A stretch of DNA of 64,000 nt from a phage. The position numbers and the translations under genes were made by a program. The stretch lies in the sequence record PX393110.1; one strand, given 5' to 3'. The notes under the pieces are model-generated. The model did no database searches, had not been told where the DNA came from, and was given only the letters and a program-made list of their open reading frames with translations. Below, in pieces: positions 2,385-61,893 of the stretch (the first letter of the stretch is position 1; each line of letters opens with the position of its first letter).

Positions 2385-5150
2385 CTACTCTTCCATAAAC
2401 GTAGTTACGTTATTGGAAAGGTAGGCACCGATTTTAGTATTATATCTCTGGAACGTAGGTACATGAGTAACCAGGATGATGTGATTAACCGGAATGTCCT
2501 GGAGAGCATCGATAGCTATGTCCAGAGTATTCACATCCAGATTCTTCAACGACTCATCCAGAATCAGGCATCCAGCACCTTTACTAAGGCTAATCAGCTT
2601 ACCGATGAACAGTACGTCCACCAGGTTCTGCTGACCACCAGAGAGATCAGAATACGGAATCAGGAACTCACCGACTTTGTATTGAACATCAAAGTCAATC
2701 TTGATATTTCCATTAGCCTGTTCACGAACGGTAGAGATGACCATATCACCACCAGTCATCATCGCAGCCACTTCCTTAAAGATAGAAGCAGTTACGTCAC
2801 CGCTATTAGTGAACAGATTCTGATACTCCACCAGCTTCTGATACTTAGGCTGAAGAGTAGCCAGCTCAGAGTTAGCCTTATCCAGCTTCGTCTGAGCATC
2901 GTCCATACGAGACTTAAGACTACGAAGAGTAGCCATAGCTCCGATAGTGGAGTTAATCTCGATAAGCTCTTGTTCCAGCTTAGCGACTTCCTCTTCCAGA
3001 ACTTGCACGGAGGAATAGGACTTAGTCTTATTCTTAAGCACTTCCACATCGCTATTGACGGTATGAATCTTCTGGCGAAGAGTGGCCACATCGTTTAGCA
3101 GACCGGACTTACGACGGAGTTCGACTAATTCGTTATTCTTAAGAGCCAGCTTCTGTCGGATTTCATCAGACTTAGGAGCCTTACTTATCTCAGCTTCCAC
3201 AGCATCCAACTTAGACACAGATACAGATCCCTGTGTCTCGAGCTCATCCATCTTACTTCTGATAGAGCTCTGTACCTGCTTAATGTCCTCTTCCTTAAGA
3301 GACTGTTTACAGGTAGGACAGGTAGTGGGAATATTCCGCATTTCTGTCTCTAACTTAGTCAACTCCTGTTCCAGACGAGTCAACTCCTTAGTTAGAGATT
3401 CGCTCTGGTTATGGAGCGAACGAATATTCCCTTCTACTTCCGACACTTCGGCATCTAGCAGAGTAATTTCGCCACGGACATTAGCGAGTGCGGAGTTAAC
3501 CTCTTCTTCGCTAAAGTCTATATTGAACGCAGCCAGCGAGTCTTCCAACATCTGAAGACTCTGTAGCTTACTATCCAAATTACCCAGCTCCCGGATCTTC
3601 TGACGAATATCATCAATCTGAGGAAGGATTCGGGATTTAGCCTCTTCCAGATCACTTACGTCCTTGAGTCTGGAGAAATCGTGATCCTCCATCGTCTTAA
3701 GGACTTCTTCCTGAGCAGTAACCTGAGTCTGGAGATTACCGATCTCTACCTTACAGTTCTTAGCCGAGGCCTTTGCGACAGCTTCGTACTGGTTAATTAC
3801 GGTAAGACCAAGCATCTTCGTTATCAGGTTGATACGCTCGTTGAATCCGAACTGGCTAAGGAACGGAGGACTGTTCTGGGAGCGGTACAGAAGATCGAAG
3901 TGTTCGAGGAATGGCAGCATCTCCCAGAGCTTAGCTTCACGCTCACGAATACTTCCGCCATCCATCTCATCGCCATCAATCCAGACTCGGAACGTCTGAC
4001 CACCAGCCCAATGGCGACTGATCAGGAATTCACGACCACCATACTCCAGCATCACTTCTACCAGAAGATGGTCCTGACCGAGTCTCACCACGTTACGAGG
4101 ACTGTCGCTACCAGTTAAGCAGTAGTTCAGAGCTCGTAACAGCGAGGATTTACCATTACCGGTTTCGCCGTAGAGATAAGTCAGACCTTTCTTAAAGTCC
4201 AGCTCCAACTTATCGATGCTACGGAAGTTCTCTACCTTAATGCTATTTAAGGTAAAGTTGAGGTCGAATACCGACTCGGAACGATCAACGTGGGTAGACA
4301 TCTCATCATGGATATCTTTAAGACCTTTAGCCCGAACGACTTTATCGATAACTTCTTCGACATCAATAGACTTAACCGAGATGCGTGAAGCATCCATCAT
4401 CTGAGCTCGTTCACGAACTACCAGATGTGGGTAATTGTCCAATCCGACAGGAACCTCATCTTCCCAGTACATCTTTAAGTACTTAAAGGAATCAGACTCT
4501 ACCGGAACCCGCTGCCAGGAAAGATCTTTGAGATCCAGCAGTACCAGACTGCCTTCCTGACTATCACCCATCCCATGAGGAATAGGCACGTTCACCGAGT
4601 GAGTATGACCGATGCTGATAGGACGGTGGATGTCACCCGCAAATCCCAGATCGTACTTAGTATCGTCGAACTCCTGACCGAACATCGAGGACAGGGTAAT
4701 ATGGCCGATTAGGACATCTACTTTATCCTGGATGAAGCTAAAGTCCTGAGTCGGACGCCAGTCGCTGAAGGCGACCTTACGGCCACCTAAGTTCAGGATC
4801 TTACCATCGACATACTCCGCCTTACCAGCCAGGATCGGCACCAGCGAGTTCTGATAGTGATCAGCATCTACCGATTTGGAGTTAATGTCGTGGTTACCCA
4901 GAATGTAGTAAATCTCGGAGAACTGCTCACCGAGGATGTCCATAAACTGGGAAGTAGCATGTGCAATCTTAGGCTCGTGCTGAGCCTTATGCACCAAGTC
5001 GCCAGCGATAGATAGGCAAGTAACTTTATGTTCCTTACCCATCTCCACCATACGATGAGCCAATCTGATAAACTGCTTTAGCCGAAACCCTTCCGAGTTA
5101 TGTTGCTGAAACTCATGAATATGAATATCAGCAGCAATTAACATTTTCAT
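2385..5150 (-). CDS. Fused Mre11/SbcD-like nuclease and Rad50/SbcC-like ATPase (single 921-aa polypeptide)
   Basis: N-terminal calcineurin-like phosphoesterase motifs (DIHIHE, GDLVH, GNHD, GDIHRP, GHTH); then Walker A GETGNGKSS, a long heptad-rich region with a CPTC zinc-hook, ABC signature LSGGQQ, Walker B CLILDE and H-loop VTHV. RBS GGAG before the ATG at 5150. Confidence 0.75.
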   Translation of the reverse strand: MKMLIAADIHIHEFQQHNSEGFRLKQFIRLAHRMVEMGKEHKVTCLSIAGDLVHKAQHEPKIAHATSQFMDILGEQFSEIYYILGNHDINSKSVDADHYQNSLVPILAGKAEYVDGKILNLGGRKVAFSDWRPTQDFSFIQDKVDVLIGHITLSSMFGQEFDDTKYDLGFAGDIHRPISIGHTHSVNVPIPHGMGDSQEGSLVLLDLKDLSWQRVPVESDSFKYLKMYWEDEVPVGLDNYPHLVVRERAQMMDASRISVKSIDVEEVIDKVVRAKGLKDIHDEMSTHVDRSESVFDLNFTLNSIKVENFRSIDKLELDFKKGLTYLYGETGNGKSSLLRALNYCLTGSDSPRNVVRLGQDHLLVEVMLEYGGREFLISRHWAGGQTFRVWIDGDEMDGGSIREREAKLWEMLPFLEHFDLLYRSQNSPPFLSQFGFNERINLITKMLGLTVINQYEAVAKASAKNCKVEIGNLQTQVTAQEEVLKTMEDHDFSRLKDVSDLEEAKSRILPQIDDIRQKIRELGNLDSKLQSLQMLEDSLAAFNIDFSEEEVNSALANVRGEITLLDAEVSEVEGNIRSLHNQSESLTKELTRLEQELTKLETEMRNIPTTCPTCKQSLKEEDIKQVQSSIRSKMDELETQGSVSVSKLDAVEAEISKAPKSDEIRQKLALKNNELVELRRKSGLLNDVATLRQKIHTVNSDVEVLKNKTKSYSSVQVLEEEVAKLEQELIEINSTIGAMATLRSLKSRMDDAQTKLDKANSELATLQPKYQKLVEYQNLFTNSGDVTASIFKEVAAMMTGGDMVISTVREQANGNIKIDFDVQYKVGEFLIPYSDLSGGQQNLVDVLFIGKLISLSKGAGCLILDESLKNLDVNTLDIAIDALQDIPVNHIILVTHVPTFQRYNTKIGAYLSNNVTTFMEE

Positions 5151-45863: not shown

Positions 45864-48848
45864 ATGTCTTATAATCCGATCTTAGAAGGATCAACCTGGC
45901 CGGAGACTATTCGTCGCTTAGAAAAGACGGATAGGGCGGAAGGTGGGCCACTAGTTACTAATTCTGAGGATGAACCAGTATCTGGACATATTAATCATCC
46001 AATAACTCAGTTAGCTACCAGAACTTCCATTTTAAAAAAGTATAATTTATCGATAATTAATAACACTAAAGAACAGTGGAAATTATTACTCGGTGACTTA
46101 GGACTAACTCTTGTTGGTACTTTTGAAGAAGGCGCTACTACTAACAGCAAGACTGATGCTGTTTGGCATATTGCTGGTGGTCAGTGTTACGTGTGGGGTG
46201 GTTTACTCCCTAAGACTGTATATGCTAACTCCACACCGCTAACTACTGGTGGTATCTCTGCTGATGCTTGGGTTAGTATTGGTGATGCCGCACTGCGAGG
46301 GCAAATATCAGACCCGGACGGTGCGACAAAATACCCTGAATTGCAGATTGCTAGATGGCGTGACACTTTTGACCCTCGCGGTTGGGGAGCTAAAGGTGAT
46401 GGATTAGTTGATGATACTGTGGCTCTTAATAATCTGTTAAACGCTGCGCCAGTGGGTCAGAAAATTAATGGTAACGGTAGAACCTATAAAGTATCTGTGC
46501 TTCCAGATATTAGCCGATTCGTCAACACTCGTTTCGTTTATGAGCGTATTCCTGGCCAGACGCTTTATTATGTGTCTGACGAGTTTGTTCAGGGTGAGTT
46601 AATTAAAATAACCGACACGCCTTATTACAATGCCTGGCCGCAGGATAAAGCGTTCGTTTACGACGATGTTATTTACTGTCCGTTCATGGCTAGCGATCGG
46701 CACGGGGTTAGCAGGCTGCATGTATCCTGGGTTCGCTCAGGTGATGACGGACAGACCTGGACGACCCCGGAGTGGCTAACCGACCTGCACCCTAATTACC
46801 CGACAGTTAACTATCACTGTATGAGTATGGGTGTGATGCGCAACCGCCTATTTGCGATGATTGAAACCCGTACATTGGCATCTAACGCACTGGTGACTTG
46901 CGAGTTATGGGATCGGCCCATGTCCCGTAACTACCATCCGACAGGTGGCATCACAAAAGCCGCCAACCAGCCTGTGGCTGTAATTACCATCCCTGAACAC
47001 GGTCTTTTTGCTGGGGATTTTGTTAACTTCTCAAACTCTGGGGTGACTGGCGTTTCAGGGAATATGACTGTAACTTCAGTTATTGACCGCAACACGTTTA
47101 CAGTTACCACGCCAAATCAACAAGCATTCGACCAAAATAACTCTACCAGCCGCTGGCATATGGGGACATCGTTCCATCAGTCACCATGGCGTAAAACCAG
47201 CCTTGGATTGATCCCCATGGTTACCGAGGTTCACAGTTTTACCGCCATCAATAACGATTCATTCATGATGGGATATCACCAGGGTGATGTTGCTCCGCGT
47301 GAAGTCGGTATGTTGTATTTTCCGGATGCGTTCAACAATCCTGGGCTTTATCAGAAACGGCATATTCCTGCTGAATATGAGCCAGATGCGGCAGAACCCT
47401 GCGTTAAGTATTTTGACGGTGTTCTTTATGTTGTAACCCGTGGAACCAGGTCTGATCGTCTTGGTAGTTCTCTGCATCGCAGTAGCGACCTGGGGATTAC
47501 CTGGCAATCACTGAGGTTTCCGAATAACGTCCACCACTCTACCCTGCCATTCGCTAAGGTAGGAAACGAACTGATTCTTTTCGGCACCGAACGCGCCGAC
47601 AACGAGTGGGAAGCAAACGCACCGGATCAACGATATTTCAGTTCTTACCCACGGACGTTCTACACGAGAGTGAACCTCGACACCTGGAACCTGAATAATA
47701 CTCAGTGGGTAAATATCACTGATCAGATTTATCAGGGTGGTATTGTTAACTCTGGCGTCGGTGTCGGATCGGTCGTCGTGAAAGATAGTTATATCTATTA
47801 CATGTTCGGTGGGGAAGACCATCTGAACCCATGGACATATGGAGATAACTTAGAGAAAGACCCATTCAAATCAGACGGTCATCCCTCAGATTTGTATTGT
47901 TACAAAATGCAGATCGGTCCAGACAATCGTGTTTCTCGTGATTTCAGGTACGGTGCTGTACCTGACAGAGCGGTTCCAGTGTTTTTTGATACGAATGGAA
48001 TTCGCACTGTTCCTGCGCCTATGGAGTTCACCGGTGATTTAGGGTTAGGTCATGTGACCATTAGAGCCAGCACCAGTAATAACGTTCGCTCTGAAGTTTT
48101 AATGGAAGGTGAGTATGGGTTTATTGGGAAATCTGTACCTACTAATAACCCAGCAGGACAGCGCACCATATTTTGCGGTGGCGAAGGAACCAGTTCTTCT
48201 ACTGGTGCACAGATTACGCTTTATGGTGCTAATAACACAGCTTCTCGCAGGATAGTTTACAACGGAGCTGAGCATCTGTTCCAGACTGCTGACGTTAAGC
48301 CTTATAACGATAACGCGATTGCGCTCGGTGGGCCTAGCAACCGATTCACTACTGCATACCTCGGAAGCAACCCTATTGTTACTTCTAACGGGGAGAAGAA
48401 AACAGAGCCGGTATTTTTTGACGATGCTTTTTTAGATGCTTGGGGCGACGTTCATTACATCATGTACCAGTGGTTGGATTCTGTACACTTGAAAGGAAAT
48501 GACGCTAGAATTCATTTTGGCGTAATTGCTCAGCAGATCCGCGATGTATTCATTGCTCACGGTCTGATGGATGAGAATAGCACGGATTGCCGCTATGCCG
48601 TTCTGTGTTACGACAAATATCCTCGCATGACAGACATGGTGTTCTCTCACAATGAAATCGTTGAACACACTGACGAGGAGGGTAATGTAACTACCACGGA
48701 AGAACCTGTATACACCGAGGTGGTTATTCACGAAGAGGGTGAGGAGTGGGGTGTGCGGCCTGATGGAATTTTCTTTGCTGAGGCAGCATTCCAGAGAAGA
48801 AGACTGGAGAGAATCGAAGCCAGACTTTCCGATCTTGAAAAGAAATAG
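45864..48848 (+). CDS. Endosialidase-like tailspike with C-terminal intramolecular chaperone domain
   Basis: 994 aa; N-terminal W-G-P-K module variant (GQCYVWGGLLPKTVYANSTPLTTGG); two Asp-box (BNR) repeats SGDDGQTW and SSDLGITW; C-terminal DDAFLDAWGDVHYIMYQW...IHFGVIAQQIRDVFIAHGL typical of peptidase S74-type chaperone domains. Confidence 0.65.
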   Translation: MSYNPILEGSTWPETIRRLEKTDRAEGGPLVTNSEDEPVSGHINHPITQLATRTSILKKYNLSIINNTKEQWKLLLGDLGLTLVGTFEEGATTNSKTDAVWHIAGGQCYVWGGLLPKTVYANSTPLTTGGISADAWVSIGDAALRGQISDPDGATKYPELQIARWRDTFDPRGWGAKGDGLVDDTVALNNLLNAAPVGQKINGNGRTYKVSVLPDISRFVNTRFVYERIPGQTLYYVSDEFVQGELIKITDTPYYNAWPQDKAFVYDDVIYCPFMASDRHGVSRLHVSWVRSGDDGQTWTTPEWLTDLHPNYPTVNYHCMSMGVMRNRLFAMIETRTLASNALVTCELWDRPMSRNYHPTGGITKAANQPVAVITIPEHGLFAGDFVNFSNSGVTGVSGNMTVTSVIDRNTFTVTTPNQQAFDQNNSTSRWHMGTSFHQSPWRKTSLGLIPMVTEVHSFTAINNDSFMMGYHQGDVAPREVGMLYFPDAFNNPGLYQKRHIPAEYEPDAAEPCVKYFDGVLYVVTRGTRSDRLGSSLHRSSDLGITWQSLRFPNNVHHSTLPFAKVGNELILFGTERADNEWEANAPDQRYFSSYPRTFYTRVNLDTWNLNNTQWVNITDQIYQGGIVNSGVGVGSVVVKDSYIYYMFGGEDHLNPWTYGDNLEKDPFKSDGHPSDLYCYKMQIGPDNRVSRDFRYGAVPDRAVPVFFDTNGIRTVPAPMEFTGDLGLGHVTIRASTSNNVRSEVLMEGEYGFIGKSVPTNNPAGQRTIFCGGEGTSSSTGAQITLYGANNTASRRIVYNGAEHLFQTADVKPYNDNAIALGGPSNRFTTAYLGSNPIVTSNGEKKTEPVFFDDAFLDAWGDVHYIMYQWLDSVHLKGNDARIHFGVIAQQIRDVFIAHGLMDENSTDCRYAVLCYDKYPRMTDMVFSHNEIVEHTDEEGNVTTTEEPVYTEVVIHEEGEEWGVRPDGIFFAEAAFQRRRLERIEARLSDLEKK

Positions 48849-48968
48849 TAAATAAAGCTTTTTTACCGTAGGTAGGGGGGCTTCAATTTAAGATTTAACT
48901 TAAACCAATTACCACTCTAAAGTTACTAAGTATTTGTACATCATGTAATATTTTTATGGAGATCACCA

Positions 48969-51590
48969 ATGGGCGGTCGTTCTAGGTTATTTAGCGAACT
49001 GGGCGGAGCTCCTCTTAATACTTATCAGCATGATAATCAGACTCTCGATATTCGCGAGTTAGAGAGTCAGCAGAAAGTATTAGACGAGACTCTTGCCGAA
49101 ACAATCGGCGATGTTAGCGAACTACAGCAGACTGCTGGACAGTCTATGTATATCCTCGGTAACTACGCTGCTGGAATGGTGATCGAGAACGACCGCCAGT
49201 ACGTCAGACATGAGAATCTGCTGTACTACTGGACTGGTCCTGTACCGTTTACCACTACTGGTAACTTCTACGAAGAATCCTACTGGACTGGTGGGGTGCA
49301 GAGTGGTATCGAATGGAGCTACGAAGTACAGGAAGATGGTGAGTTTGAGTTTGAAGTACCATACTCCTTCACCAGCGTACGCCTGTTCGTGGGTGGCGCT
49401 CGCCTTACTCGCGTAGAAGATTACACTATCGATGTGATTAATCGCAAGATCACTCTGACTAAGATTAAACTGTCGAAGGGCGTCCTGGTAACTGCCGAGC
49501 TGAATTCTCGTGATGCTCTCAGCGTTACCCAGGATCGCATCGATAGCCTTACCAGAGAGATCTCAGAGAAAGTAGGCTTTGTTAACTACAAACTTACTGA
49601 TCTGTCGGAAGGTCAGAGCCTTACCCTAACTACCAGAGTTCAGACTGTAAGCTTCTCACTAAATGGGGAGTATTACAAATGGGATGGTGTTCTTCCTAAA
49701 GTCGTTAACTATGGAGATCCGGAACCAGCTCAATCTGAGCAGGGTACTGGTAAGTGGATTCCTGTAGGTTCTGGCGCCTTGAAATCAGAACTGGGCAAAG
49801 TCAGCGACACTACTGGAGCGGTTCTTGTAGCTCTACCACAAGGCGGTAACGTGGCGAACGGTATTCGCTATGTAACTCCCGAAATGGCTGGTGCTAAAGG
49901 AGATGGTACCACTGATGACACCACAGCCGTTCGTAACGTTGTAGCTCTCGCCAAATTAACTGGTCTTAAAATCACCGGTGGAGCGAACTATAAGATCTCG
50001 AATGCTTCAATCGATATCTCTGGTACTGTCATTGAGAACCTACGTCTTAAAGGAAGTGGGTCTAGCTCTATACTGCTAGTTAATGGCAATACTGCCATAT
50101 CTAATCTAACCCTAAATAGGGTAGGTATTAGACACACTAACGGTATCTTAAACCTGGACAAATTTGAGATCAATGACTGTAGTGCTACTGCGGCTATTTT
50201 AAGCCTTCAGCTAACATCACCTGGACAAATATTTCTCACCAATGGTGTTATGCGTCGTTGTAATTACGGTTACCTTCGTCAGGGATCTCCAGCTTCTTCC
50301 CAGCCGCTGACTACTTCATTACTTCGGAATTTACAATTCTTCGATATGAAGGGTGATCCAATCGAGATCAATCTGGCGATAGCTGATACCAACACTACTA
50401 TCGATCAAATAACCATAGATAACGTGGACTCCACAGCTACCGGGAATACTAACTGGGGTATTGCTATAGGCTTAGCTGGGATGGGTAACTACTCACCCAC
50501 TGCCGCAGACTCAGAGTACATGTCTGATGTAACCATAAGTAATATTAAGATTACCGGAGCCAAACAGTGTCTGCACTTGGAGAAATGCAGAAACATTAGA
50601 ATCAGAAATATCGACATACATCCGGATTCCACTAAGTCAACCGGAGTTGGGTTGGATACTGGTGGTTTCATAGCTTATGGATGTAAAGAGATATACGTGG
50701 ATGGTGTAACTGGGTCTCCAACCAACGGAACGGAAGATATGATTCGTTTCGCTTGGGGATCTGTTAACAATGCGTTTACCTTCGCTCATCGAAATGTGCA
50801 CTTAAGAAACGTCAATGTAACAGGTACTGTTAAAGTGGAGGTTAGCTGTTCTGATACCCTAGCTTCGACTGTAGAGATGAGAAATATCAATGCAACAACG
50901 ATATCTCTCCAAGGCATGGCGTCTGAATACCAGCTGTCAGATTGGTCCGCTGAGAAGATGGTGTTGGATTTCAGATATGTTAGCGGAGATGCTAGAGATA
51001 ATTACCGTAGAAATGCGTGGTCAATTGCTACCATCAGTAATTTGAAATGCCTGAATTCTAACACTGGCGCTCCTGAGGTTACTGTACAGAACATCACTGT
51101 GGATACATTGGAAGTTTCTGGGTGTAACTTCCCTATCCAGAAGACTTTAACTGCTACCCATTGGAGAGGAACTCCTGCATGGCGGCAGAATGGTATTATT
51201 TACCACTCTAAGACCGGAACTCCTTATGGCATGGCTCTTCTTGCTGGTGACACTATCGTTGCTAGTGACGGAACTATGTTCACGGTGACCTCCCCTGGAG
51301 CTCTGTTCTACTCAAACGAAACTGTTGCGGCCGCTACTGCTGGGTCTAACGCTATTCGTTCTAAAACTAACCTTAACTGGACTGGTCAGTATTATAAGAC
51401 TGCTGGGTGTAAGGTTAAAATAGCAGGAGGTGGAGGTGCTGACGGCTCTGATTACATCGGTACTATTGTCCGCAGTGGTTATATTAACAGTGGTAATTAC
51501 TACTTTGATGTTTACCCACCACTTCAGTCTAACGTACCTGATGGCGCAGTATTAACTTCCGTAGAAGTACCAGCCTTTAAAACAGTTTAA
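48969..51590 (+). CDS. Tailspike / tail fibre protein (873 aa), beta-helix-like
   Basis: W-G-P-K motif (YYKWDGVLPKVVNYGDPEP); repeated short beta-rung-like segments. Confidence 0.5.
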   Translation: MGGRSRLFSELGGAPLNTYQHDNQTLDIRELESQQKVLDETLAETIGDVSELQQTAGQSMYILGNYAAGMVIENDRQYVRHENLLYYWTGPVPFTTTGNFYEESYWTGGVQSGIEWSYEVQEDGEFEFEVPYSFTSVRLFVGGARLTRVEDYTIDVINRKITLTKIKLSKGVLVTAELNSRDALSVTQDRIDSLTREISEKVGFVNYKLTDLSEGQSLTLTTRVQTVSFSLNGEYYKWDGVLPKVVNYGDPEPAQSEQGTGKWIPVGSGALKSELGKVSDTTGAVLVALPQGGNVANGIRYVTPEMAGAKGDGTTDDTTAVRNVVALAKLTGLKITGGANYKISNASIDISGTVIENLRLKGSGSSSILLVNGNTAISNLTLNRVGIRHTNGILNLDKFEINDCSATAAILSLQLTSPGQIFLTNGVMRRCNYGYLRQGSPASSQPLTTSLLRNLQFFDMKGDPIEINLAIADTNTTIDQITIDNVDSTATGNTNWGIAIGLAGMGNYSPTAADSEYMSDVTISNIKITGAKQCLHLEKCRNIRIRNIDIHPDSTKSTGVGLDTGGFIAYGCKEIYVDGVTGSPTNGTEDMIRFAWGSVNNAFTFAHRNVHLRNVNVTGTVKVEVSCSDTLASTVEMRNINATTISLQGMASEYQLSDWSAEKMVLDFRYVSGDARDNYRRNAWSIATISNLKCLNSNTGAPEVTVQNITVDTLEVSGCNFPIQKTLTATHWRGTPAWRQNGIIYHSKTGTPYGMALLAGDTIVASDGTMFTVTSPGALFYSNETVAAATAGSNAIRSKTNLNWTGQYYKTAGCKVKIAGGGGADGSDYIGTIVRSGYINSGNYYFDVYPPLQSNVPDGAVLTSVEVPAFKTV

Positions 51591-56969: not shown

Positions 56970-57146
56970 ATGTCTAGCAACGAACCATGGTTCAAGACTG
57001 GATTCGAAACCGAGATACCGGCCGTAGCGCCGGTAAACTCAATCTTCCAGTCCTTACAGGGTAAAAGATGGAGATTTGATGGCCAGGGATGGGTCGAAAT
57101 AGAGTCTCTACAGGCGGCTCTCCAGAGAAAACAGGCTCAGAAATGA
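56970..57146 (+). CDS. Small protein (58 aa), below the ORF-track threshold
   Basis: ATG at 56970 preceded by AAGGAGTAAAC; translation MSSNEPWFKTGFETEIPAVAPVNSIFQSLQGKRWRFDGQGWVEIESLQAALQRKQAQK; fills the gap between the fibre and endolysin genes. Confidence 0.4.
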   Translation: MSSNEPWFKTGFETEIPAVAPVNSIFQSLQGKRWRFDGQGWVEIESLQAALQRKQAQK

Positions 57147-57170: not shown

Positions 57171-57818
57171 ATGGGCGTTACACTTGACCAGCTGAAGAAG
57201 TTCCTCCCAACGACTTCAACGGAAGTACTGGAAAAGCTACTGCCTGCCATTAATACTACTATCGAGCGTTACGGTATCAATACCAATCGTCGTCTGCGCT
57301 ATTTTATGGCGCAGACTGCTTTTGAAACTCGGGACTACACTAAATTTGTGGAGTCCCTGTATTATACCACTGCGTCTCGTCTGGTAGATGTATGGCCGAG
57401 CAGATTTACTCTTCGTGGCGAGCCTGGGAAGCTTAATGCGACTGCTTATATACGCGATTCAGAGAAATTGGCTAATCAGGTATATGCTAATCGCATGGGT
57501 AACGGGAATCCGGCCAGTGGTGATGGGTACAAGTACATTGGTCGTGGCGCGATGCATCTAACTGGCAAAGCAAACTATCGTGAAGCCTCATTGGATATCT
57601 TCGGCGATGACCGTTTGGTAGAAGACCCAGAGTTAGTCGCGACGGATTTCGAGACGATCATGCTTACTGCAGGATGGTTCTGGGATAAAAATAAATTAAA
57701 TCAATTAGCAGATCAGGACGCATTCACCAAAGTAACCCAGAAGATAAATGGGTCTGCTGCGACCGTACCTGACCGACTGCCTGTACTACGCAGAGCAAAT
57801 CAGACTTTAACTCTTTAA
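57171..57818 (+). CDS. Endolysin, GH19-type (chitinase-class lysozyme)
   Basis: FMAQTAFETRDY and GDGYKYIGRGAMHLTGKANY match the GH19 catalytic core. Confidence 0.7.
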   Translation: MGVTLDQLKKFLPTTSTEVLEKLLPAINTTIERYGINTNRRLRYFMAQTAFETRDYTKFVESLYYTTASRLVDVWPSRFTLRGEPGKLNATAYIRDSEKLANQVYANRMGNGNPASGDGYKYIGRGAMHLTGKANYREASLDIFGDDRLVEDPELVATDFETIMLTAGWFWDKNKLNQLADQDAFTKVTQKINGSAATVPDRLPVLRRANQTLTL

Positions 57819-57832
57819 TATGGTGATCAATA

Positions 57833-58249
57833 ATGGACAATATCCTGGATGTAATTGATGGCACCAAGATCGATGATTACATCGCTCTTGCACTAGCCAT
57901 CATCGGCTTCGCATCAGTGCTGGTGCAAGCTCTGGAGAAGATCGCTAAGATCACTCCTAATACTAAAGACGACGAATACATTGGGGTAATTAAGAAATAC
58001 CTCGGTTATGCATCGTCCATCTTAAACTTCGTCGCTCTGAACTTGCCTAAATCAGCTGCCAGGGTAGATAAGAAAGCTGCCGCTCAGGATGAGCAGAAAG
58101 TGCAGACCATGGATAAAGCTAAGCAGGTTCTTTCCGACGTAGTCCAAACTCAGGATGATCCGCACCTAGTGAGTAAGGCTACCCAGGCTATTGATGCCCT
58201 TGATTACGGTAAGTCTCTGATCAAAAATCCAGAGGGTAAAAAGGAGTAA
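57833..58249 (+). CDS. Membrane protein, holin candidate
   Basis: 138 aa with one hydrophobic segment (YIALALAIIGFASVLVQAL); directly downstream of the endolysin. Confidence 0.35.
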   Translation: MDNILDVIDGTKIDDYIALALAIIGFASVLVQALEKIAKITPNTKDDEYIGVIKKYLGYASSILNFVALNLPKSAARVDKKAAAQDEQKVQTMDKAKQVLSDVVQTQDDPHLVSKATQAIDALDYGKSLIKNPEGKKE

Positions 58250-58252
58250 GGT

Positions 58253-58483
58253 ATGAAAGCTCTTACTCTTATTCTTCAGCTTATTACCCTACTCGTATCT
58301 GCTATGCAGACTCGCTCTCGGGAGAAGAAAGATGAAGAAATTAAAAATGACCCTACTGGTGCTTGGGAGTCTAAGTTTGGTAAGCTGCAACAGCCTACCG
58401 GTACAGATGCAGACGCCGAAGGTAAGGTGCGACCGTCCACCGATAGCAGCGATAGCGGAAAAAGACGGGATCAGGATTCCTAA
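58253..58483 (+). CDS. Putative i-spanin (N-terminal TM segment)
   Basis: 76 aa; N-terminal hydrophobic helix ALTLILQLITLLVSAM; strong RBS AAGGAG; overlaps the lipoprotein ORF in another frame. Confidence 0.4.
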   Translation: MKALTLILQLITLLVSAMQTRSREKKDEEIKNDPTGAWESKFGKLQQPTGTDADAEGKVRPSTDSSDSGKRRDQDS

Positions 58484-58541
58484 CGCTGAATTAGCTAAAT
58501 TGGTATCTTATATAGATTGCCTAGAGAGCAATCAGAAGTGA
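58332..58541 (+). CDS. Putative o-spanin (lipoprotein, lipobox LVSC)
   Basis: 69 aa; signal peptide MKKLKMTLLVLGSLSLVSC with lipobox cysteine; starts inside the i-spanin candidate in the +1 frame and extends beyond it. Confidence 0.45.
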   Translation: MKKLKMTLLVLGSLSLVSCNSLPVQMQTPKVRCDRPPIAAIAEKDGIRIPNAELAKLVSYIDCLESNQK

Positions 58542-58551
58542 GGAATCTTGT

Positions 58552-58884
58552 ATGCGCGAGAGGGAAGAGTCTGAGTTCGGTGGACACCAACTCGATAGGC
58601 TAGCGAGACTTGAATCTAACCAGAAGTTTCAGGGAGTAATCCTTGATCAACTTATGGAGTCTTCTCGTAAGCAGACGGAGATATTAGCGGATATCCGTGA
58701 GCTAGTCGTTGCACAGAATTTCATGTCTAAGAAGATTTCTGACCTTGAAGATGAGCAGGATGATCTAAGGAAGGAGATTAAGGAAGTAAATGACAAGATT
58801 AAATTCTGGAGTGGTGCGTTAGCAATTATTAGTGTACTGGTAGGATTGTTTAACGACGCCATCATCGGCATCTTTAAGCACTAA
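58552..58884 (+). CDS. Coiled-coil protein with C-terminal transmembrane anchor (lysis-associated?)
   Basis: 110 aa; heptad-rich N-terminal region, C-terminal hydrophobic segment WSGALAIISVLVGLF; last gene of the plus-strand block. Confidence 0.35.
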   Translation: MREREESEFGGHQLDRLARLESNQKFQGVILDQLMESSRKQTEILADIRELVVAQNFMSKKISDLEDEQDDLRKEIKEVNDKIKFWSGALAIISVLVGLFNDAIIGIFKH

Positions 58885-59179: not shown

Positions 59180-59733
59180 CAGATACTCCGTACAAATAAT
59201 TCCCGGAATGGTTTAATTACCTTCTCTACTTCAGCATCCATCTTGGTTTCTGACTTACCAGATAAGATATTGAAAAGAGATACACGAACGGCCTCCCGAA
59301 CCGACTCTTGAGTCATATCGACCTTGCCTTCATACGCTGAATAAATAGTCTGGCAGTTGCTAAGTAAAAATACTAGCTCTACCGCCTGATGAACGACTTC
59401 TTGATACTGCTGGTCGCGCTCGATAGCTTCGTTCATCTTAGGAGTGTGTGGATTATCGCAGATTTCCCAGGTCTTTACGATATCAGGATTAGCGAATACA
59501 TCGGACGATTTAATACCTATCGACACTTTAAGTAGACGGTGCTTAATACCGTTATTGGTAATAGTCAGATCGTGCATAGCATGACGAAGAGCTTGCTCGA
59601 ATTCAAAGCTAGACTCTCGGACTACTATATCATAGCTCTCAGCCTGGTCGATAGGACGGACTGTTAGAACGAGTACTGCTGTACCTCCCAACATACCGAT
59701 TAGGTTGTCTATATCCATATTACTCAAAGTCAT
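59179..59733 (-). CDS. hypothetical protein (184 aa)
   Basis: ORF track; start/stop overlaps with neighbours. Confidence 0.45.
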   Translation of the reverse strand: MTLSNMDIDNLIGMLGGTAVLVLTVRPIDQAESYDIVVRESSFEFEQALRHAMHDLTITNNGIKHRLLKVSIGIKSSDVFANPDIVKTWEICDNPHTPKMNEAIERDQQYQEVVHQAVELVFLLSNCQTIYSAYEGKVDMTQESVREAVRVSLFNILSGKSETKMDAEVEKVIKPFRELFVRSI

Positions 59734-60092
59734 TTCTTTACCTTCTTATAGAACTTGTGGTCGCCTATTCTGGCTGTCATTCTATAGCCCTTCCAGTTAG
59801 GCCTAACCTTTACATTATGAAAGTGAGTAGCCCCGAATGTGGGATCTTCACTGTATTTAACTCTTGCCGCAATATGAATAGCAGATGCCTTAGATTTAGG
59901 ATCTTTCATATTCTGGTAAGAGATGTGACGGTACCACGGAAAGGTATTCCTGTTTTTAACTACCTTACATGGGCTTATACCGTATTTCTTCGCTCGGTTG
60001 AGTACCACGTGGGCTACAGCTAACTGCCCACGTTCCGACTCTCCCCTGGCCTCATAGTAGACGACCATAGCTACGCAATCGGCAGAAGTCAT
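59730..60092 (-). CDS. Cell-wall hydrolase, SleB/CwlJ-like (Hydrolase_2 family)
   Basis: MVVYYEARGESERGQLAVAHVVLNR matches the conserved N-terminal motif of SleB-type hydrolases. Confidence 0.55.
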   Translation of the reverse strand: MTSADCVAMVVYYEARGESERGQLAVAHVVLNRAKKYGISPCKVVKNRNTFPWYRHISYQNMKDPKSKASAIHIAARVKYSEDPTFGATHFHNVKVRPNWKGYRMTARIGDHKFYKKVKK

Positions 60093-60513: not shown

Positions 60514-61137
60514 TTAGAAACGATCGCGACCTATGATTGGTGCGACTGGTTTAAAGTCAGTCTGGTCGTAACCTTTGTAAAGGTCGTAGCCACCACCAGC
60601 AACCTCAGTAAAGTAAATCTGACCGATGCGCATGTTAGAACGCAGTCGGATAGTGTTAGGGCTTAGGTTAACAATCTCTAGAGTAAATGCTCCCTTGAAT
60701 CCAAAGTCCCCGAAACCTGCACTGACATGGCTCAGTATTCCCAGACGACCCATAGTGCTGCGACCGTCGTAATGCTGACAGAATGCCACACCACGGTCTA
60801 CAGTGCTGTTACGGTATCGTGGGTCATAATGCTCGAACCACTTCTCAGGCAACATGGTAGTACAGTCGATACGTTCAGATGCTGAGCCTAAGATGAACTC
60901 CCCAGGTTTAAGATCGTAGTATAGTGCCTCTACCTCGCGATACTCCGGAAGAGTACATGGTTTATAGGGATCTACTACATGGCCATCAGGCATCTTTTGA
61001 GGAACCAGGAAGAACGGAGCTAAGCGTACATCTACACTATTCTGTCCGATTCGTGGTTCCTGATTGTCCAGATAACTGTGATAGGTCCATAATCCTTGAG
61101 TAATTGCCTGCTCAATATAAGATTTACCAAGGATCAT
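60514..61137 (-). CDS. dcd: dCTP deaminase family protein
   Basis: VDVRLAP and GRSTMGRLGILSHVSAGFGDFGFKGAFTLEIVNLS align with the dCTP deaminase/dUTPase-fold signature. Confidence 0.65.
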   Translation of the reverse strand: MILGKSYIEQAITQGLWTYHSYLDNQEPRIGQNSVDVRLAPFFLVPQKMPDGHVVDPYKPCTLPEYREVEALYYDLKPGEFILGSASERIDCTTMLPEKWFEHYDPRYRNSTVDRGVAFCQHYDGRSTMGRLGILSHVSAGFGDFGFKGAFTLEIVNLSPNTIRLRSNMRIGQIYFTEVAGGGYDLYKGYDQTDFKPVAPIIGRDRF

Positions 61138-61422: not shown

Positions 61423-61893
61423 TTACTTAATCCCGGAATGGCCAAACCCACCGTCGCCACGTTCAGAAACATCAGAGAATTTATCCACAAGCTGGAGCTC
61501 TGGATGGATAACGGGAAGAAACACCATTTGAGCGATACGGTCGCCGTGGTTAATAACGAAAGATTCGTTACTACGGTTCCACACAGACACCATCAGTTCT
61601 CCTTGATAGCCGGAGTCGATAAGACCAACCAAGTTACCCAGTACGATGCCATTTTTATGGCCGAGGCCGCTGCGGGGAAGAATCACAGAAGCGATGTTCG
61701 GATCGCCGATGTTGATCGCTAGACCGGTAGGGACCAGGATAGTTTCGCCAGGATTTACAGCGATTTTATCGATTTCGTCAGTCTTAATCATCGCACGAAG
61801 ATCAAGACCAGCATCACCAGCTTTAGCGTATTTCGGTAACTCCAGAGAGTCGTCCCAGTTAATAGTTTTCTTTACTTGAACTACGGTCATCAT
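61423..61893 (-). CDS. dut: dUTPase (deoxyuridine 5'-triphosphate nucleotidohydrolase)
   Basis: Canonical motifs [30 protein letters not shown] and C-terminal [10 protein letters not shown]. Confidence 0.9.

Follow-up and report, generated by a model that had tools for sequence, protein, structure and literature searches.

A phage lysis cassette with a GH19 endolysin, an overlapped o-spanin-type lipoprotein gene and a conserved, unannotated three-gene block

The lysis cassette described here occupies positions 57,171 to 58,884 of a 64,000-nucleotide stretch of phage DNA (sequence record PX393110.1), the whole of which we call the window, and is the tail end of the late operon. It consists of five open reading frames (ORFs), all on the plus strand and all anticipated by a first-pass annotation made from the sequence alone, followed by a hairpin. 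Three of the genes are referred to below as X, Y and Z.

57171-57818, plus strand: GH19 endolysin, soluble, 215 amino acids (aa)
57833-58249, plus strand: X (TM138), membrane protein of the family phrog_9685, 138 aa
58253-58483, plus strand: Y (ORF76), small protein at the position of an inner-membrane spanin subunit (i-spanin), 76 aa
58332-58541, plus strand: Z (ORF69), putative outer-membrane lipoprotein of the type of an outer-membrane spanin subunit (o-spanin), 69 aa
58552-58884, plus strand: ORF110, predicted tail-anchored cytoplasmic coiled-coil protein, 110 aa
58887-58927: terminator, a hairpin with a 15-bp stem and a T-run, supported by its folding energy and by a stem kept in relatives

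The presence of a GH19 endolysin and an overlapped lipoprotein gene in one lysis cassette is of an already known kind, and textbook role assignments are partly supported by what we find. What is new is the conserved, unannotated block formed by X, Y and Z, a lipoprotein partner without the defining features of an i-spanin, and an orphan tail-anchored coiled-coil protein.

Organization and conservation of the cassette

The intergenic gaps in the cassette measure 3 to 14 nt, and Shine-Dalgarno-like sequences precede all five starts (in gene order AGGGG, GGTGA, AAGGAG, GGGAG and GAGG). The AAGGAG of Y is a strong site, and Y begins 3 nt past the stop codon of X. Z starts at codon 27 of Y in the +1 frame, overlaps it over 152 nt and extends 58 nt past the Y stop. 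Placement of the cassette at the end of the late operon, as proposed at first pass, is borne out by the hairpin that closes the operon and by the convergent minus-strand genes beyond it. The hairpin has a folding energy of -27.4 kcal/mol (z = -7.6); it was not listed by a consensus terminator scan and was confirmed by folding. Upstream, no terminator was found between the 1014-aa DUF4815 structural gene, a 58-aa ORF and the endolysin gene.

Within the phage collection, close relatives are limited to the Escherichia phages vB_EcoM_IME392 (96% nt) and EP_H11 (92% nt). Both retain the terminator stem, EP_H11 with a compensatory stem change. Divergence is greater in the metagenomic relatives L007 and L008, whose full-length X has 65-68% amino acid identity. 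All five ORFs are intact in all four relatives. The homologues of Y, Z and ORF110 are unannotated in the IME392 record (MH719082, 6154-6784), and Z is also left unannotated in the EP_H11 record. Relative to L007, the single-coding genes diverge by 22-26%, chiefly at third codon positions; substitutions at the first, second and third positions number 32, 19 and 91 in the endolysin, 16, 3 and 42 in the X core, and 19, 8 and 58 in ORF110. The Y/Z overlap diverges by only 13% with neither frame position-biased, so both frames are real genes, and the Z-only segment diverges by 6.9%. Judging from these substitution patterns, all the ORFs are under purifying selection and the Y/Z overlap is under dual-coding constraint.

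The endolysin

The first gene had been annotated as a GH19 endolysin, an assignment upheld by matches to Pfam Glyco_hydro_19 (PF00182; 8.2e-9, 36 bits against a cut-off of 25.5 bits), to phrog_181 (endolysin; 6.5e-60) and, at full length, to the PDB entries 9eoi (9.5e-29) and 4ok7 (1.7e-16); GH19 chitinases are matched as well. It is an ordinary member of its family: like other GH19 phage endolysins (Salmonella phage SPN1S, 4ok7; 9eoi; 9ms6), to which it is homologous over its full length, it is a single-domain soluble protein, and we see no notable difference from them. No signal-arrest-release or signal sequence and no transmembrane domain (TMD) was found in it, and its maximum Kyte-Doolittle hydropathy is 0.95. 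Lacking a hydrophobic N-terminus, the enzyme is therefore soluble and needs a holin-type lesion to reach the wall.

Z resembles an o-spanin

From its sequence, Z is well supported as an o-spanin-type outer-membrane lipoprotein, and this is the best supported part of our interpretation. It carries a lipoprotein signal, MKKLKMTLLVLGSLSLVSC, with the lipobox LVSC, the lipid-bearing Cys19 and Asn at +2. LVSC is conserved in five relatives, and every Z homologue has a lipobox whose +2 residue is N, S, Q, A or L; D does not occur there. The first-pass annotation had already described an LVSC lipoprotein overlapped in the +1 frame, and the lipobox, the dual-coding constraint and the same arrangement in other phages all agree with it. 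Z also holds Cys33, Cys63 and five Pro residues. Its conservation among phages is intermediate within the block; the lipid Cys, one Pro, Y60 and L64 are invariant, the last two lying in a C-terminal helix whose motif ELxxY[IL]xxLE is kept in all lineages.

Similarity to known spanins is weak for Z itself (phrog_3198, Rz-like spanin, 6e-4, mostly over the signal peptide); homologues of Z match the spanin families phrog_8971 (8e-8) and phrog_456 (4e-5), and the homologue in phage XM1 is annotated as 'Rz-like spanin'. A unimolecular spanin of the T1 gp11 type was considered for Z and rejected, the C-terminus being an amphipathic acidic helix with no TMD.

The closest described arrangement is that of the overlapped spanins of the P2 LysB/LysC type, whose prototype is lambda Rz/Rz1. 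Here, as there, a lipoprotein gene starts inside a small gene in the +1 frame and lies after the endolysin (Z begins 514 nt downstream of the endolysin gene), and its product has a lipobox, an outer-membrane sorting residue and the periplasmic Cys of an o-spanin. In contrast to that type, the partner Y has no coiled-coil periplasmic domain, a TMD that is marginal here and absent family-wide, and no match to an i-spanin family, and a third conserved gene, X, is always attached.

Y is not a typical i-spanin

The product of Y, the gene partnered with the o-spanin-type gene Z, begins with an amphipathic and marginally hydrophobic helix; a charged segment and the motif DPTGAWESKFG follow, and the tail is disordered. 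Y is the least conserved member of the block; its relatives in other phages share the N-terminal helix, the charged segment and a motif D[PA]xxxFxxxF. Membrane propensity was expressed as dG19, the Hessa biological hydrophobicity scale summed over the best 19-residue window of a protein. For the Y helix dG19 is +4.5 in the phage studied here, +2.0 in L007, +6 to +8 in Aeromonas and Vibrio phages, and +12 to +14.6 in lineages L045, L009 and L031, where the helix contains Lys, Asp, Glu and Arg; the control, lambda Rz, gave -2.5. Kyte-Doolittle hydropathy of the helix here is 1.9 over 17 residues, and dG17 in L007 is -0.56. The hydrophobic moment, 0.33-0.68, marks the helix as strongly amphipathic. 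Over residues 21-76, hydrophobic residues make up 9% and disorder-promoting ones 86%, no heptad pattern is seen, and this composition leaves no coiled coil. Y contains no Cys, and its 13 Lys and Arg residues are balanced by 13 Asp and Glu.

Searches with Y matched no i-spanin family, only PHROGs of unknown function (9219, 24056, 24944 and 21600), and an hhalign comparison with phrog_1026, the i-spanin family of Shewanella phage 1/4, returned a probability of 1.5%. Secretion of Y by the Sec route was considered and dropped, the cleavage-like site between VSA and M being confined to the window lineage.

These properties bear on the first-pass description of 58253-58483 as a classic, N-terminally anchored and unusually short i-spanin. 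The classic identity is not supported, given an amphipathic helix, a disordered tail without a coiled coil and the lack of an i-spanin family match. The anchor stands to the extent that the helix is present, but it is only marginally hydrophobic. The length of 76 aa is correct, but is no obstacle: a 2018 spanin census includes the 64-aa i-spanin of phiP27 and combined periplasmic lengths of 62-300 residues (PMC6139136), a range that takes in the approximately 107 residues of Y plus Z. Phage phiP27, with a combined periplasmic length of 62 aa, thus brings a 76-aa i-spanin within known limits, and T4 PseT.3/PseT.2, with Cys only in the o-spanin, does the same for an i-spanin free of Cys (PMC6139136). 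We found no sequence relationship of the phiP27 and T4 spanins to Y or Z, and their i-spanins, unlike Y, have a bona fide N-terminal TMD. Because its helix is marginal and amphipathic and its tail is disordered, Y sits at the i-spanin position without being a classical i-spanin, though it may be weakly anchored in the window lineage.

In its size and its amphipathic helix Y is also reminiscent of the 'disruptin' of phiKT, gp28, a small non-TM amphipathic protein that acts on the outer membrane, disrupting it once the wall is degraded (bioRxiv 10.1101/515445). Disruptin acts alone in a phage without spanins, whereas Y is always accompanied by a lipoprotein and is not strongly cationic.

X is a conserved small membrane protein

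X matches phrog_9685, a family of unknown function (5.2e-16) that is defined by its N-terminal 75 residues or so; homologues are 63-80 aa long. An acidic N-tail is followed by a TMD at residues 16-34, a conserved motif, IAKITPNTKDDEY, and an amphipathic helix. The small-residue motif of the TMD is GFAS here against a family consensus of GGAS, and G25, S28, I37, A38, T41, P42, D46, D47, L64, A68 and N70 are invariant or nearly so. Residues 78-138 form a helical extension of about 60 residues that is restricted to the window lineage and evolves fast (46% nucleotide divergence from L007). The dG19 of the TMD is +0.2 kcal/mol, within a family range of -0.9 to +1.0. The N-tail has a net charge of -4 here and of -1 to -4 across 11 lineages, its short forms being without Lys or Arg, and the C-terminal part carries a net +1 to +5 in the 11 lineages. 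X is therefore predicted to be oriented N-out/C-in, and this charge-based topology predicts a cytoplasmic location for the conserved motif and the amphipathic helix. An AlphaFold2 (AF2) model places helices at residues 12-40, 44-69, 81-106 and 110-131; because its confidence is low (pLDDT 53), only the secondary structure was used.

The first-pass annotation had presented X as a single-TM holin candidate. The single clear TMD, followed by amphipathic helices, is there; the holin role is not supported as stated. Generic features of holins are found in X, namely small size, the TMD, a charged C-terminal part and a start 15 nt past the endolysin stop. Pfam and NCBIfam scans of X, Y, Z and their homologues returned no families.

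X and Y stand in the same reading frame here, separated by TAA GGT. A read-through fusion of the two was considered and dropped; because the shared frame recurs in phage JA-1 but not in five other lineages, it looks coincidental.

X resembles Lcc6 of the Shewanella prophage LambdaSo, which has 65 aa, a TMD at 5-22 and about 43 cytoplasmic residues; lysis needs Lcc6 at the holin step, although the protein is not lytic alone (bioRxiv 10.1101/2024.01.23.576932). The likeness of Lcc6 to the X family members of 63-80 aa is one of size and predicted topology. The gene for Lcc6 lies far from the lysis genes, and the X of the window has the additional 60-residue extension. A profile search of genome contigs with X, aimed at Lcc6 (SO_4795), matched just two Aeromonas prophages.

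The X-Y-Z block in other phages

X, a small next gene and a lipoprotein gene are found together in at least seven phage backbones, from phages of E. coli, Aeromonas, Vibrio and Shewanella and from marine sequences. Carriers outside the window lineage are as follows.

Aeromonas phage phiARM81mr and many Aeromonas prophages: block
Vibrio phages phi 2, X29 and XM1: block
Vibrio podophage 252E42.2 and about 100 relatives: block
N4-like Vibrio phage JA-1 (L044, KC438282), 1640-2156: block
Marine IMG/VR contigs L009 and L031: block
Shewanella phage 1/4 (L047, NC_025436), 2489-3784: X

The gene after X begins -4 to +8 nt from the X stop in all occurrences, and the lipoprotein gene overlaps it in the +1 frame by 89-152 nt. 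The same Y/Z overlap geometry is seen in 10 of the 12 distinct loci in which Z was located; in X29-like vibriophages Z lies 552 nt downstream, past an inverted gene. No lineage has Y without both X and Z (12 distinct loci). Conservation falls from X (33-52% identity across backbones) through Z (about 25%) to Y (about 19%). Endolysins adjoining the block are of at least four enzyme types. The JA-1 block adjoins thyA and has no endolysin in its vicinity; its X (1640-1840) and Z (1926-2156) lack annotation.

All four backbones in which an endolysin adjoins X have a holin-like membrane protein upstream of the endolysin. It matches phrog_785 in phiARM81mr (4.5e-29), phrog_175 in 252E42.2 (6e-6) and, weakly, phrog_14453 in phi 2 (9e-4); in L009 it is a 48-aa ORF with a TMD and no holin-family match. 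The presence of this separate protein makes it doubtful that X is "the holin".

In Shewanella phage 1/4, X (S14_170; phrog_9685, 1e-31) precedes an unrelated spanin-type pair. The i-spanin-type member, S14_171, has 68 aa, matches phrog_1026 (6e-16) and has a proper TMD (dG19 -2.0); the other is an unannotated overlapped lipoprotein at 2816-3028 that matches phrog_1275 (6e-13). Homology of this pair to Y and Z was considered and dropped (hhalign probability below 2%). X is therefore a companion of short spanin pairs and is not inherited only with Y and Z. The same locus continues with S14_172 (106 aa), which combines a TMD at its N-terminus with a coiled coil, and then with the multi-TMD protein S14_173. 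The supplements of the 2018 spanin census contain neither the Y and Z motif strings nor the names JA-1 and VBP47, and we found no description of a third spanin-linked component in the literature searched.

ORF110 is a lineage-specific coiled-coil protein

The AF2 model of ORF110 is a single continuous helix over residues 2-109 (pLDDT 89). Its heptad register is continuous, and a TMD at about 88-108, with an invariant Asn-Asp, is followed only by Lys-His. The N-domain of 87 residues has about 37 charged residues (net -5) and no signal peptide, which places the coiled coil in the cytoplasm; by sequence and model alike, ORF110 is almost certainly tail-anchored with a cytoplasmic coiled coil. With that topology it cannot span the periplasm, and the periplasm-spanning function suggested for it at first pass falls away.

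No homologue of ORF110 outside its lineage was found by a word-index search or by a full HMMER search, against 1.84 billion representative proteins; a single extra match was rejected as a coiled-coil false friend. Within the lineage it is well kept: its identity to the L007 protein is 85%, with third-position-biased substitutions, as against 65-67% for full-length X. ORF110 was not found in any other X-Y-Z phage, so the module works without it.

In architecture ORF110 is like XhlA of the Bacillus element PBSX (PF10779) and the staphylococcal DUF2951 proteins, which likewise combine an N-terminal coiled coil with a C-terminal TMD and are encoded in lysis cassettes. XhlA is a membrane protein needed together with the holin XhlB and the endolysin in PBSX (PMC5589764). 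These, however, belong to phages of Gram-positive bacteria, and the likeness is architectural, with scores below threshold: 12.2 bits against a cut-off of 34.7 for PF10779, 0.0057 for phrog_1193, and a similarity to DUF2951 that is also below threshold. ORF110 may have an antiholin or holin-level role.

A proposed lysis mechanism and its alternatives

Small TMD proteins near the endolysin in the window are X, ORF110 and, marginally, Y; there are no others. In EP_H11, scanned over its whole genome, no PHROG holin turned up. Both the X extension and ORF110 are confined to the window lineage, which is also the lineage without an upstream holin. Because no separate holin lies upstream of the endolysin, X with its 60-residue extension and ORF110 are the likeliest providers of the hole or of its timing, and they are our best holin candidates.

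The roles that we infer for X, Y and ORF110 would combine as follows. The endolysin would depend on a membrane lesion to reach the wall, and in the window lineage X and ORF110 would supply or time that lesion in the inner membrane, X acting as a lysis factor linked to the spanin pair and not as a generic stand-alone holin. Once the wall had been degraded, Z and its partner Y would disrupt the outer membrane in the manner of spanins; the Y helix may be hydrophobic enough here for a weak inner-membrane anchor, which would leave some 107 periplasmic residues between Y and Z. We give this account, in which X and ORF110 provide the inner-membrane lesion and Y and Z then disrupt the outer membrane, about an even chance of being correct.

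Several findings weigh against it. The Y helix is not TM-competent in most lineages and is borderline here; where it is not, Y would have no evident way to meet the periplasmic Z, and the same doubt extends to the present phage. In X29-like phages Z has none or one periplasmic Cys and Y has none, a departure from the disulfide rule proposed for two-component spanins (PMC6139136). X has no holin-family match in Pfam, NCBIfam or PHROGs, and all 252 of its homologues that were found carry the label 'hypothetical'. The topologies were derived from counts of charged residues and a plain summing of hydrophobicity, and the AF2 model of X is of low confidence. A protein outside the window could also be the true holin: EP_H11 (L041, OP688485) encodes at 48842-49069 a holin-like protein of 75 aa, which has two TMDs and ends in a charged tail. 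Its gene is among small genes on the strand of the replication genes (gyrase, polymerase), opposite to the late operon, and it matches no holin family.

The alternatives overlap in part with this account and with one another. A textbook assignment would make X the holin, Y and Z a self-sufficient two-component spanin, short but classical, in which Y is a type II inner-membrane protein, and ORF110 an antiholin or timing regulator. The order of endolysin, TM protein and overlapped pair is indeed that of many cassettes, the endolysin is soluble with no other TMD protein nearby, the Y helix is moderately hydrophobic in the window lineage (Kyte-Doolittle 1.9; dG17 of -0.56 in L007), and the combined periplasmic length of about 107 aa lies within 62-300, the range in a census that has a 64-aa i-spanin in phiP27 (PMC6139136). 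But elsewhere X coexists with holin-like proteins, three of them in holin families while X is in none; in JA-1 and Shewanella phage 1/4 its block lies far from any endolysin; and across its family Y has no coiled coil and is not TM-competent, with dG19 values of up to +14.6 and charges inside the helix. We regard the textbook assignment as possible, though clearly less probable than the mechanism proposed above. The lack of TM competence of Y in most lineages also speaks for a module of three components, in which X anchors or gates, Y is a non-integral amphipathic adaptor (moment 0.33-0.68), Z is the outer-membrane subunit, and the holin is ORF110 or lies elsewhere. X, Y and Z co-occur wherever Y is found (12 loci), the X stop is coupled to the Y start, X is the sole single-TMD protein near Z in those cassettes, and X is more conserved (33-52% identity) than Y (about 19%) or Z (about 25%). 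Y would then be tethered by X or, alternatively, be freed to the periplasm through holin lesions, and we rate this arrangement, with either route, as rather unlikely. Against it, X is predicted N-out/C-in with merely 5-15 periplasmic residues, the i-spanin of Shewanella phage 1/4 has its own TMD (dG19 -2.0) and has no need of X as an anchor, and the literature searched holds no precedent. The broader proposition that X-Y-Z is an unrecognised three-gene module for outer-membrane disruption, with Y not integral and X a new and widespread lysis factor (phrog_9685), seems to us doubtful, if a little less so than that particular division of labour.

A holin encoded elsewhere, such as the EP_H11 protein at 48842-49069, would reduce X to an Lcc6-like accessory and leave ORF110 with no part in lysis, serving for example in exclusion or host takeover. 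The two TMDs and charged tail of that protein speak for this, as do the precedent of Lcc6, a small protein with a TMD and a cytoplasmic tail that is essential at the holin level and not lytic, and the lack of homologues tying ORF110 to lysis. Yet the remote candidate is on the strand opposite to the late operon and has no holin-family match, ORF110 lies ahead of the terminator, in close translational packing with the cassette, and is strongly constrained, and X is likened to Lcc6 by architecture alone; we consider this explanation improbable, more so than a three-component module. Much the least probable, to the point that we set it aside, is that ORF110 is an i-spanin of reversed topology with a periplasmic coiled coil and a C-terminal anchor. 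Its helix, about 13 nm long, does lead into a TMD, and its gene comes immediately after that of the o-spanin, but without a signal peptide a domain with some 37 charges (net -5) cannot cross the membrane unaided, just two residues lie past the TMD, and the protein is absent from every other X-Y-Z phage.

Neighbouring genes

The 58-aa ORF between the DUF4815 structural gene and the endolysin (56970-57146, plus strand) encodes a conserved soluble protein that is annotated in EP_H11 and not in IME392, and it has no family match. Beyond the terminator, the minus-strand gene at 59730-60092 encodes a 120-aa protein that matches Pfam Hydrolase_2 (SleB-like cell wall hydrolase; 2.5e-20), a second putative peptidoglycan hydrolase in the convergent operon about 850 bp from the lysis cassette. 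Further along the same strand are a dCTP deaminase-like gene (60514-61137) and a dUTPase gene (61423-61893). IME392 and EP_H11 were listed in 2025 among phages with genes of the 5-hydroxymethyldeoxyuridine pathway and a YerA41-like DNA polymerase (PMC12686479), which suggests thymidine-hypermodified DNA in this phage group.

Outside the window, EP_H11 has a further overlapping pair at 46492-46870. An unannotated 69-aa ORF, whose product has a coiled coil besides a TMD at the N-terminus and a tail rich in Cys, is overlapped by the gene for a 72-aa protein with a signal peptide and no lipobox, a spanin-like geometry. The pair lies among small genes on the strand of the replication genes, away from the late operon.

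Implications for phage lysis

The rules by which spanins are identified demand an N-terminal TMD in the inner-membrane subunit; a phage whose partner protein had none would go unannotated or be counted as lacking spanins. Shewanella phage 1/4 has been listed in print as spanin-less, although it has X and a spanin-type pair. For annotation, the gain is three genes missing from the IME392 record and corrected functional labels in at least six phage groups. X emerges as a small membrane protein conserved alongside short spanin pairs in phages of E. coli, Aeromonas, Vibrio and Shewanella, and it resembles the only extra factor described at the holin step, Lcc6. Since the host is E. coli, the complementation platforms for lambda S and Rz/Rz1 are usable for each gene of the cassette. 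If the three-gene module is true, its E. coli phage version would be a tractable system in which to study spanin action without a classical i-spanin.

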